Below, one piece after another: positions 1,299 through 4,961 of a stretch of 64,000 nucleotides of DNA. A program made the translations under genes and the position numbers. The DNA comes from a virus (taxonomy: Duplodnaviria; Heunggongvirae; Uroviricota; Caudoviricetes), in IMG/VR virus record IMGVR_UViG_2511231131_000001; one strand, given 5' to 3'. The notes beneath the pieces were generated by a model that was not told the origin of the DNA, did no database searches, and saw only the letters and a program-made list of their open reading frames with translations. The number at the start of each line of letters is the position of its first letter. Position 1 is the stretch's first letter.

Positions 1299-1748
1299 GG
1301 CTCGGCACTGCCCGTTGGCGTGCCTGTTCCGTGGCCCTCAGCCACACCACCAACGGGGTGGCTGAAATGTAACGGAGCAGCATTTTCTTCTGAAAAGTAC
1401 CCAAATCTGGCAAAGGTTTACCCAACGTTAAAATTACCTGATTTACGCGGTGAGTTTATCCGTGGTTGGGATGATGGGCGAGGTGTGGATGCGGGAAGGG
1501 GCATCTTAAGCATACAGGGGTGGTTAACAGGAAGTCATTATCATAATATTCGGTCATGGGACGCGTGGGATAACACGGTATTGGTGCCAAATGACAGAGG
1601 GGGGGATAGTCTGTTGTCGACAGATAACGCCGTCCAAGAAGGAGCGATTAATGGTAAATTTACCAGTCAATACAGAACGGAGTTATCTGGGGGGAATGAA
1701 ACCCGCCCACGTAACATTGCCTTCAATTATATTGTGAGAGCAGCATAA
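1290..1748 (+). CDS. silent tail-fibre variable cassette D
   Basis: Same conserved ends as B and C; stop overlaps the start of the downstream assembly gene (TAATG). Confidence 0.55.
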   Translation: MGEGSALPVGVPVPWPSATPPTGWLKCNGAAFSSEKYPNLAKVYPTLKLPDLRGEFIRGWDDGRGVDAGRGILSIQGWLTGSHYHNIRSWDAWDNTVLVPNDRGGDSLLSTDNAVQEGAINGKFTSQYRTELSGGNETRPRNIAFNYIVRAA

Positions 1749-2359
1749 TGGATAATGCGATATTAAATAGCGAACTTATAGCCATACAGGCAGGAAACAT
1801 TATCGTTTATAACTATGATGGTGGTAATCGGGAATATATTTCTGCATCAACTGAATATCTTGCTGTTGGCGTTGGTATTCCGGCAAATTCTTGTTTGGAT
1901 GCTCCAGGCTCACATAAAGCAGGTTATGCGATTCTCCGTTCAGAGGATTTAAGTTCATGGGAGTATGTGCCAGATCATCGTGGCGAAACTGTCTATAGCA
2001 TTGACACTGGGAATCCCGAAGAAATCACGGTGTTGGGTGACTATCCGGAAAATACAACCACTATCGCCCCGCTAACACCATACGACAAATGGGATGGAGA
2101 GAAATGGGTGGTTGATACTGAGGCTCAACATAGTGCAGCTGTAGAGGCAGCAGAAACAAAACGTCAGTCATTGATTGATACTGCGATGGCTTCCATTAGT
2201 CTGATTCAGTTGAAATTACAGGCTGGACGGAAGTTGACGCAGGCAGAAACCACACAGCTTAACTCCGTGCTAGATTATATAGACGAGCTGAACGCGATGG
2301 ATTTAACCACGGCACCAGATCTCAACTGGCCTGAAAAACAACTTTCTGCAGCCAGTTGA
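1748..2359 (+). CDS. tail fibre assembly chaperone (U/Tfa-like)
   Basis: 203 aa; position directly after a fibre cassette; C-terminal region resembles Tfa-family chaperones; converges on the S stop. Confidence 0.55.
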   Translation: MDNAILNSELIAIQAGNIIVYNYDGGNREYISASTEYLAVGVGIPANSCLDAPGSHKAGYAILRSEDLSSWEYVPDHRGETVYSIDTGNPEEITVLGDYPENTTTIAPLTPYDKWDGEKWVVDTEAQHSAAVEAAETKRQSLIDTAMASISLIQLKLQAGRKLTQAETTQLNSVLDYIDELNAMDLTTAPDLNWPEKQLSAAS

Positions 2360-2364
2360 TATAA

Positions 2365-4515
2365 TTAAGCCGCCCTCACAATATAATTAAATGCAATATT
2401 ACGAGGGCGGGTTTCTAAGCCAGCAGTACCTAAATTAGCTACGGACTGTTTATATGTTTTAAAAGTTCCATAATTAGGGGCTGGCAATCCTGCATCGCTT
2501 GTGTTCCCCCATCTGATAACTCCCGTATTACCACTAGTAGCCCATGCCTCGTCAAAGTAGAAATTAATTGAGCTGTCAGTTGCTACGGTTGATTTTGACG
2601 GTAATCCGTGAGCATGATCCTCCGTTGCATATCCTTGCTCGCTTAAAATAGAGCGACCAGAGTCAATCCCTCGCCCATCATCCCAACCACGGATAAACTC
2701 ACCGCGTAAATCCGGTAATTTATTGATGGGATAAGCCTTTGCCAGTTTGGGATACATTTCAGAAGAAAATGCTGCGCCGTTACATTTCAGCCACCCTGCT
2801 GGCGGTGTGGCTGAGGGCCACGGAACAGGCACACCAACGGGCAGCGCCGAGCCTTCTCCTAAACCAAGGTAATCAAGAACGCTCTGAATACTGGTCTTAC
2901 CAAGAATGGCGCGTCCGACACTTGTCAATGCAGTTAACGCGGCACGATCAACACCTGTGAAATAAGGGAGTTTATCTGCTGCTGTAGCTAGTGCCGCTAG
3001 AGCAGTGAGCGTAGCGTCTGCCGCTTGCTTTCCATTAGCCAAATCATATGCAGCCTTGACAGCTTTCGGTGTGGCGGCCAGCACTTCGGACGTGCTATTA
3101 GTAGCACTGCTGAGTTGGACTATCCCTTTTTGAGCCGTGGTTGCATCCTGGGCTGTATACTTCCCGTTAGCCAGGTCATATGCTGCCTTGACTGCTTTCG
3201 GTGTGGCGGCCAGCACTTCGGACGTACTGTCAGTAGCACTACTGAGCTGAGTGATGCCTTTCGCTGTCAATGAAGCTGTTGGCACACCAGTGATCTGATT
3301 CCAGGGATGTGTATGACTGGATGGTGCCTTTCCGGCAGCTAGATCGTATGCAGCTTTAACCGCTTTTGGAGTTGCAGCTAATGTTTCAGAAGTGCTGTTG
3401 GTGTCGCTACTGAGCTGAACTATCCCTTTTTGTGTCGTGGTTGCATCCTGGGCTGTATACTTCCCGTTAGCCAGGTCATATGCAGCCTTGACAGCTTTCG
3501 GTGTGGCGGCCAGCACTTCAGACGTGCTGTTAGTGGCACTACTGAGCTGAGTGATGCCTTTCGCTGTCAATGAAGCTGTTGGCACACCAGTGATCTGATT
3601 CCAGGGATGTGTATGACTGGATGGTGCCTTTCCGGCTGCTAGATCGTATGCAGCTTTAACCGCTTTTGGAGTTGCAGCTAATGTTTCAGAAGTGCTGTTA
3701 GTGTCGCTACTGAGCTGAACTATCCCTTTTTGTGTCGTGGTTGCATCCTGGGCTGTATACTTCCCGTTAGCCAGGTCATATGCAGCCTTGACAGCTTTCG
3801 GTGTGGCGGCCAGCACTTCGGACGTACTGTTAGTGGCACTACTGAGCTGAACTAATCCCTTTTGCGTTGTGCTTGCATCCTGCGCCGTATACTTGCTTTT
3901 CGCCAGATCGTAGGCTTTTTTAACTGCCAGCGAACTCGCAGCAACATCACTTCTGGTACTGGTTACAGAGTCTGAAATATCAATGCCGATCGTGCGGTTG
4001 ATACGCTCGGATGTATCAATCATCTCTTGAGTAATGGTAGATACGCCAGCAGGGATATTCACCGTACAAACCAGCAGTTCCCCATCACCTAACTGATATG
4101 AATCGGTATAGGTTCTGGCAACAAATTCAGCTGCATGAATATGTGACGCGGTATTCACCTGATAGGTATCTTCTCCAAGAAGGTATCTTCCCTTCAGCAC
4201 AATTGCATATTTCTTGCCTGCGTTAAGTGCAAGAGAGATATCCTTACGATGCTGAATAGTTACCTGGTAGAATTCACCAATATCCACTGACGCCGCGCCA
4301 GCGGTTTTATCTCCATCCACTGAGGTGATTAACAGGTTCATCCCACCGCCAGGCTTAGGCAAGAAACCAGCATAAAATCCCGGGTCAACAATTCCCCTGA
4401 ATTTTCGGTTTAGAGCGGCTGACAGATATGGTTCGTGGTATTGCACATCAGCCACCAGAGCCAACGACTCGGGTGATGGGTAAGTAACCGATGTAACAAC
4501 TGTAACGTCATTCAT
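2365..4515 (-). CDS. S: tail fibre protein S (constant part plus currently expressed variable C-terminus)
   Basis: Starts MNDVTVVTSVTYPSPESLALVADVQYHEPYLSAALNRKF as P1 S (recalled); track start at 4602 would overlap R, so the ATG at 4513-4515 is preferred; KAVKAAYDLA repeats; C-terminus homologous to cassettes. Confidence 0.8.
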   Translation of the reverse strand: MNDVTVVTSVTYPSPESLALVADVQYHEPYLSAALNRKFRGIVDPGFYAGFLPKPGGGMNLLITSVDGDKTAGAASVDIGEFYQVTIQHRKDISLALNAGKKYAIVLKGRYLLGEDTYQVNTASHIHAAEFVARTYTDSYQLGDGELLVCTVNIPAGVSTITQEMIDTSERINRTIGIDISDSVTSTRSDVAASSLAVKKAYDLAKSKYTAQDASTTQKGLVQLSSATNSTSEVLAATPKAVKAAYDLANGKYTAQDATTTQKGIVQLSSDTNSTSETLAATPKAVKAAYDLAAGKAPSSHTHPWNQITGVPTASLTAKGITQLSSATNSTSEVLAATPKAVKAAYDLANGKYTAQDATTTQKGIVQLSSDTNSTSETLAATPKAVKAAYDLAAGKAPSSHTHPWNQITGVPTASLTAKGITQLSSATDSTSEVLAATPKAVKAAYDLANGKYTAQDATTAQKGIVQLSSATNSTSEVLAATPKAVKAAYDLANGKQAADATLTALAALATAADKLPYFTGVDRAALTALTSVGRAILGKTSIQSVLDYLGLGEGSALPVGVPVPWPSATPPAGWLKCNGAAFSSEMYPKLAKAYPINKLPDLRGEFIRGWDDGRGIDSGRSILSEQGYATEDHAHGLPSKSTVATDSSINFYFDEAWATSGNTGVIRWGNTSDAGLPAPNYGTFKTYKQSVANLGTAGLETRPRNIAFNYIVRAA
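2854..2879 (-). other. candidate crossover site inside S (reads TTCTTGATTACC-TT-GGTTTAGGAGAA on minus strand)
   Basis: Left half 10/12 identical to hix left half TTCTTGAAAACC; inverted relative to the three cassette sites; TT core in the same codon position. Confidence 0.45.
3030..3900. repeat. tandem repeat, about 300-bp unit in about 3 copies, built from 100-bp subrepeats, within S
   Basis: ccaggtcatatgc.gccttgac.gctttcggtgtggcggccagcacttc recurs at about 3171, 3471 and 3771; encodes repeated ...TPKAVKAAYDLAxGK... blocks. Confidence 0.8.
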
Positions 4516-4526
4516 CAAGCATATCC

Positions 4527-4961
4527 TTATGCTGTAGTCGAGTTTATGGCCATAACTGCGGTATATGTTTTGCCCACATACAGCGAGTCTTCCTGGACAC
4601 AAATAATGGCGATTGGCTTATTCTCGTTATCCAGAACAACCAGAGTGTTGAATGGGTAGTTTTTCCCTTCCTGCAACTGACTTTGATCAAGGTCCATTCG
4701 GACAGTAATTATCCCGCCTGAGTAGGTTGGGACGAGGTTGATGGTGCAAAATTGACTGGTCAGTTCTGCCAGATCGAAAGCCTTTGGCAGTTCTCCAATC
4801 TCATAAGTGCCATCTCCTTTCTTAGTAACCAGTGAACTGGTACCGAAAACGGCCTTGCTGATTAAAAATCGAGAGCCTTTGTTAATGGACGATTCAGCGC
4901 GCCGCTGATAGTAATAGTCCAACAACTGACTCTTATAGAGGTTTGTTGAGACGTCAGACAT
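4527..4961 (-). CDS. tail-fibre-associated structural protein (P1 R position)
   Basis: 144 aa, immediately upstream of S in the same operon; name by synteny only. Confidence 0.45.
   Translation of the reverse strand: MSDVSTNLYKSQLLDYYYQRRAESSINKGSRFLISKAVFGTSSLVTKKGDGTYEIGELPKAFDLAELTSQFCTINLVPTYSGGIITVRMDLDQSQLQEGKNYPFNTLVVLDNENKPIAIICVQEDSLYVGKTYTAVMAINSTTA

Follow-up and report, generated by a model that had tools for sequence, protein, structure and literature searches.

The window analysed here, a 64,000-nt stretch of viral DNA, carries the tail-fibre gene S on the minus strand at positions 2365 to 4515, encoding a 716-aa protein that starts from an ATG (MNDVTVV), although the mechanical ORF extends to 4602. 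Immediately upstream, as in the P1 tail-fibre operon, lies gene R (4527 to 4961, minus strand, 144 aa), which matches the tail fibre assembly protein family phrog_2032 (E 1.1e-84) and is annotated as R under the P1 and P7 BLAST matches. The S protein belongs to tail fibre family phrog_2631 (E 1.2e-291) and contains seven Phage_fiber_2 (PF03406) stretches according to Pfam (E 4.9e-128, 416.9 bits against a cut-off of 22). Its N-terminal domain (3937 to 4515, minus strand) is common to P1 and P7, exhibits 95 to 100% amino acid identity to 80 P1-like loci in IMG/VR, and probably mediates attachment to the baseplate. The first 776 nt of the query, which run from the 3' end of R into the start of S, are 95.9 to 96.6% identical at the nucleotide level to P1 and P7; with these and other P1-like phages, the match of approximately 96% stops inside the first repeat unit of S, A0.

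At its C-terminal end, S is completed by an expressed variable tip (Sv; 2365 to 2855, minus strand) with a phage tail Collar domain (Pfam, E 2.2e-13). Between Sv and the constant part of the gene (Sc) is a putative site-specific inversion crossover site, TTACCTTGGTTTAGGAG (2856 to 2872, minus strand), which has a single match in the window and forms the inner end of 230- to 250-nt inverted repeats common to the expressed tip and the silent tip cassettes. These silent cassettes, which encode Collar domains (Pfam), are found on the plus strand at 259 to 765, 806 to 1279, and 1290 to 1748, with the end of a fourth at approximately 197 to 246. Positions 1 to 2900 of the window resemble a p15B/Min-like multi-cassette inversion region, to judge from the sequence. 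No invertase gene was found in the ORF list between position 1 and S, while in relatives a recombinase gene adjoins the tip cassettes; the inversion region thus probably continues beyond the start of the window. Positions 2663 to 25000 align with the E. coli IncY plasmid pT309.Ta3_1 (NZ_CP128256) in one ungapped piece of 99.6% identity that includes the whole repeat array, and the collinear region, a 22-kb P1-like backbone, contains P1-like baseplate, tail, and immunity genes. The P1-like synteny, the crossover site and the silent cassettes together place the repeat within Sc of gene S of a P1-like phage-plasmid, as originally predicted, and the window would be classified by sequence as a P1-like, p15B-type phage-plasmid with a p15B-like multi-cassette inversion region.

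Several peculiarities of the tip region were observed. The only tail-fibre assembly gene there (U-like, Caudo_TAP; 1748 to 2359, plus strand) converges on the stop of the expressed S at 2365, so that in the present orientation S has no chaperone gene at its 3' side, and the silent cassette at 1290 to 1748 is the one that the chaperone gene accompanies. In the related locus L001 (IMGVR_UViG_3300030379_000127), the S ORF departs from the tip sequence exactly at the 2856 to 2872 site and ends ...SVLDYL/PFLLKHP*, its constant part adjoining non-tip DNA as the result of a deletion or of an inversion state that would yield a tipless fibre. An mcr-1.1 insertion is found in several close P1-like plasmids (matches H148, H149, H152, and H153) in the region collinear with window positions 1 to 25000; the window has no such ORF in that region, and a check showed that it does not carry mcr-1.

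Tandem Repeats Finder detected a repeat of period 300 at 3085 to 3850, with 2.6 copies, 95% matches, no indels and a score of 1399, in agreement with the predicted repeat of about 300 bp in tail fibre S. The array lies on the minus strand as coding sequence within S, and the peptides quoted in the original prediction are found in its minus-strand translation. In the first 9 kb the same program reported a nested 132-nt period at 3691 to 3942, and a scan of the whole window revealed no large tandem repeat other than the 300-nt array. A repeat search delimited 300-nt copies at 3028 to 3327, 3328 to 3627, and 3628 to 3927; relative to the copy at 3028, the copies at 3028, 3328, and 3628 and a shifted copy at 3760 are 100, 88, 71, and 60% identical, respectively. 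The 300-nt repeat is real and far beyond chance. The offset-300 identity profile confines the near-identical stretch, labelled as the actual recent duplication, to 3133 to 3851 (minus strand), which amounts to approximately 2.4 copies: two full A plus B pairs and part of a further A, rather than the three near-identical copies initially proposed.

To define the units, the S protein was split at a recurring TPKAVKAAYDLA motif, which gave seven units in the order A0-A1-B1-A2-B2-A3-C, all on the minus strand. The 300-nt period equals one A module (132 nt, 44 aa) plus one B module (168 nt, 56 aa), and so consists of two unequal modules, not of the three 100-bp subunits that had been suggested. B is an A in which YTAQDATTTQ is swapped for the longer APSSHTHPWNQITGVPTASLTA. 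The proximal unit A0 (3805 to 3936, 44 aa) is approximately 70% identical to A1 and A2 at the nucleotide level, matches the P1 "repeated element a0/a1" (M81956), and is the oldest A module. It is followed by the first internal A, A1 (3673 to 3804, 44 aa), the first B, B1 (3505 to 3672, 56 aa, with the APSSHTHPWNQITGVP insert), the second internal A, A2 (3373 to 3504, 44 aa), the second B, B2 (3205 to 3372, 56 aa), and the distal A3 (3073 to 3204, 44 aa). From 3072 downwards the terminal half-repeat of C passes into unique linker sequence (2873 to 3072): a repeat head, TPKAVKAAYDLANGK, precedes the non-repeated QAADATLTAL...KLPYFTG...VLDY that runs up to the crossover site.

The two full copies, A1B1 and A2B2, are identical at 294 of 300 nt and differ by five synonymous codon changes and one N-to-D substitution, consistent with the expectation of synonymous or conservative differences only. 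A1 and A2 are separated by a single synonymous difference; A2 is identical to the "internal" A allele a3, present in 11 of 16 parsed relatives, and A1 differs from it at one site. B1 is identical to allele b1 of several plasmids. B2 differs from B1 at five nucleotides, four of them clustered within the last 32 nt and mixing variants of other units, so that the cluster looks like a conversion patch rather than scattered mutation. With four of them clustered, the six differences between the blocks fit gene-conversion patches as well as they fit simple duplication followed by mutation. A part of A3 joins the near-identical stretch, but the whole unit is only about 85% (84 to 85%) identical to A1 and A2 and is assigned to a distinct "distal" class of alleles; compared with A1 it has 12 synonymous and three non-synonymous differences. 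The differences of A3, and of the older A0 that precedes the pairs, from A1 and A2 are mostly synonymous, which argues for constraint at the protein level.

Repeated elements are already annotated in P1, where Sc carries elements a0 (36 nt), a1 (132 nt), and b1 and b2 (222 nt each) (GenBank M81956, AF234172). P1 S is the same gene in the same place after R, and the 132-nt a1 corresponds to window unit A in a different register: A0 spans the P1 a0/a1 stretch, and A1 to A3 are further copies. In P1, only one complete "a" element and a fraction of another precede the two 222-nt "b" elements, and there is just one invertible C segment; the window has four A units and two 56-aa B units, after which come a short C linker and an inversion region with multiple cassettes. 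According to notes in the P1 record, homology between P1 and p15B, which has the Min multiple-inversion system, ends inside a1, which is the point at which the window diverges from P1. As in p15B, there are several alternative tip cassettes in the window; this is a resemblance, seen through the P1-record notes, and not an identity.

The Phage_fiber_2 repeat was first noted in the Stf protein of phage lambda. PF03406 describes a tail-fibre repeat of approximately 40 residues that occurs in variable number, and whose structure and function were reported to be little known (PMC3368898). All seven window units score well above the cut-off, and the 12-residue insert of B, SSHTHPWNQITG, lies outside the 42-position model; the location is that of the family, with tail-fibre PHROG assignments, R upstream and a Collar-domain tip downstream. 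A tblastn search detected the B unit in other phages at 86 to 88% identity, and many P2-like fibre genes gave more distant matches. Three near-identical A units are found in one P2 gpH variant. In the Mu-like Escherichia phage PhiKM, gpH contains two B units that include the SHTHPW motif, together with the C linker and the crossover-site peptide seen in the window. The C linker is likewise the same in the relatives of the window and in the PhiKM fibre gene. Since the P2-like and PhiKM H proteins have different N-terminal anchoring domains, unit numbers, and unit orders, the relationship is one of module sharing and not of whole-gene orthology. The occurrence of near-identical A and B modules in P2-like and Mu-like fibres indicates that they are standard building blocks of the shaft, which are shared horizontally and vary in number.

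To place the window among its relatives, S was parsed from 80 IMG/VR loci and from complete plasmids; the resulting allele series comprises approximately 17 parsed complete loci and is not a census. Related plasmids and IMG/VR contigs form a series A0-(A-B)n-[A]-C, with n from 0 to 4. The arrangement A-A-C was found in L085 and L088; A-A-B-C in L010, L079, L082, and L091; A-A-B-A-C in L001 and L086; A-A-B-A-B-C in L084 and L090; A-A-B-A-B-A-C in the window and L081, being also listed for NZ_CP128256; A-A-B-A-B-A-B-A-C in L093; and A-A-B-A-B-A-B-A-B-C in L092. In L004, L009, L089, and L094, an A/B array is followed by P1-type "b" elements, and classical P1 and P7 possess A0 alone of the A/B units. 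All parsed alleles are in frame and differ by whole 132- or 168-nt units. The comparison of S among P1-like relatives that had been proposed as a check showed variation in the number of A-B blocks, and this variation is an ordinary length polymorphism.

Could the second A-B block have been created, or further blocks collapsed, by mis-assembly? The copy number in the molecule from which the window derives rests on assembly, and the array is a place where assemblies do fail: as anticipated for short-read data, six or seven of approximately 18 p15B-type IMG/VR contigs end inside it, compared with none of 46 P1-type contigs. A protein database search with the N-terminal domain recovered no full-length S and mainly short partial proteins, the main N-terminus cluster being a 270-aa partial protein with 524 members, and some long-read records have systematic frameshifts in every unit. 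However, the two blocks of the window are distinguishable at six sites, A3 is of a different allele class, and the reading frame is unbroken. BLAST recovered the identical arrangement, without gaps, from no fewer than five independent complete plasmids (H30, H31, H32, H34, and H42, of which H30 was parsed as L081), in addition to the one-piece match to NZ_CP128256. Distinguishable copies and the same arrangement in independent assemblies make an artefact very unlikely for the window. The frameshifted long-read records are L083 (NZ_OP242270) and L087 (CP042617), in which S is unannotated and each A and B unit is frameshifted at its CCTGG (Dcm) site; such a pattern is typical of systematic nanopore errors at methylated sites and not of real pseudogenes.

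At the nucleotide level, the A units can be sorted into proximal, internal, and distal classes, and the internal A and the B units differ little or not at all between plasmids. In NZ_CP022733, unit a9 is a clean chimera, with distal-type SNPs at nt 70 to 108 and an internal-type tail. The B copies within one array have lineage-specific SNPs in common, and in several plasmids a private SNP is present in all B copies, which indicates either expansion within lineages or homogenisation. The chimeric A unit and the lineage-specific SNPs within arrays point to recurrent unequal homologous recombination.

The same data bear on whether the array is instead old and stable, its near-identity kept by gene conversion (concerted evolution) and not produced by recent duplication. 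An arrangement common to several plasmids, lineage-specific SNPs common to the copies of one array, and the clustered B2 differences that mix variants of other units are all compatible with concerted evolution. Against this, plasmids with approximately 99% identity elsewhere carry different copy numbers, ranging from 0 to 4, and the chimeric unit marks an unequal crossover, so that copy number is demonstrably not stable; we consider an old, conversion-maintained array unlikely. It overlaps with the explanation by duplication and recombination that we prefer, and differs from it in timing only. With respect to timing, the "recent expansion" of the original prediction was overstated for this genome: the A-A-B-A-B-A-C arrangement is shared, ungapped, by at least five independent complete plasmids, and the two copies in the window are more diverged from each other than the identical copies of several relatives. 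The window holds one allele of the n = 0 to 4 series.

The explanation that we prefer, and regard as very likely, is that a two-module A-B block in the shaft-encoding Sc was tandemly duplicated in frame, as part of a recombination-driven allele series, with extension of the shaft as the likely effect. The duplicated block consists of two Phage_fiber_2 repeats, A (44 aa) and B (56 aa), which add up to 100 aa or 300 nt, 14% of the protein. When units misalign, unequal homologous recombination or gene conversion would add or remove a whole A, B, or A plus B; the long identical stretches between units would allow such gain and loss of whole units with the frame intact. The pathway responsible may be RecA- or phage-mediated. 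The outcome would be the natural series of alleles with 0 to 4 A-B blocks.

At the level of the fibre, an added block would most likely lengthen the presumably trimeric shaft that separates the baseplate-attachment domain from the exchangeable receptor-binding tip, and a longer shaft would be expected to alter reach or flexibility and not receptor specificity. That copy number sets shaft length, as originally proposed, is plausible by analogy. In the trimeric adenovirus fibre, shaft length depends on how many short pseudo-repeats the sequence contains. The analogy is confined to repeat number and length, as sequence, fold, and virus are unrelated. A literature search for a relation between repeat number and fibre length returned nothing. 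An AF2 single-sequence monomer model of the array (332 aa) had a mean pLDDT of 40.8 and a pTM of 0.21 and was discarded. PDB sequence searches with the array and the B unit identified as relatives only one repeat in the Mu fibre protein S (5yvq, 8ju3, and 9ki1); antibody matches in these searches were attributed to chance. An S-H-T-H-P-W motif is conserved in the B units at 3205 to 3372 and 3505 to 3672 and recurs in PhiKM gpH, and the insert bearing it had no match among solved structures in the PDB search with the B unit. Metal sites formed by three HxH motifs are known from the tip of T4 gp37. By analogy, the three HxH motifs of a B-unit trimer could form a candidate metal site.

It is conceivable that the array acts as an adaptive contingency locus, in which copy number changes at high frequency under selection and tunes fibre reach to the depth of the O-antigen or capsule. 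The in-frame polymorphism of n = 0 to 4 among close relatives, and the position of the array, with the anchoring domain on one side and the exchangeable tips on the other, would be consistent with such a role. On the other hand, 300-nt repeats are expected to recombine at ordinary homologous-recombination rates only, and the polymorphism may be neutral, and we judge a contingency locus to be quite improbable from the sequences at hand. Among the parsed alleles, on/off switching by frameshift was not found, the only frameshifted copies being those with the sequencing-error pattern. Similarly doubtful is the more elaborate proposal that (A-B)n is a selected "length dial" by which P1-like phage-plasmids, through repeated gain and loss of 100-aa blocks, match fibre reach to O-antigen or capsule thickness beside the tip-switching inversion, with B perhaps adding a His-x-His metal node.

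Returning to in-frame duplication of the A-B block, the array is genuine, ordinary, and of a known kind, and represents no new type of element or mechanism. A literature search found no paper with an explicit description of the n = 0 to 4 series, although such a series is unsurprising for a known repeat family. The array accounts for the frequency with which draft and nanopore assemblies of p15B-type P1-like plasmids, members of a phage-plasmid family that spreads resistance genes, leave S truncated, partial, or without annotation, and the module map (A, 44 aa; B, 56 aa) permits copies to be counted correctly. The natural shaft alleles, with 0 to 4 extra 100-aa blocks, could be used to ask whether fibre length affects adsorption or host range.

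An antisense ORF on the plus strand (3025 to 3273) was without support and was dismissed as a by-product of the repeat. Elsewhere in the window, a small tandem repeat at 28982 to 29058 comprises 3.7 copies of a 21-nt unit (TCGCGTACAGTCAACAATAAA) with 82% matches.
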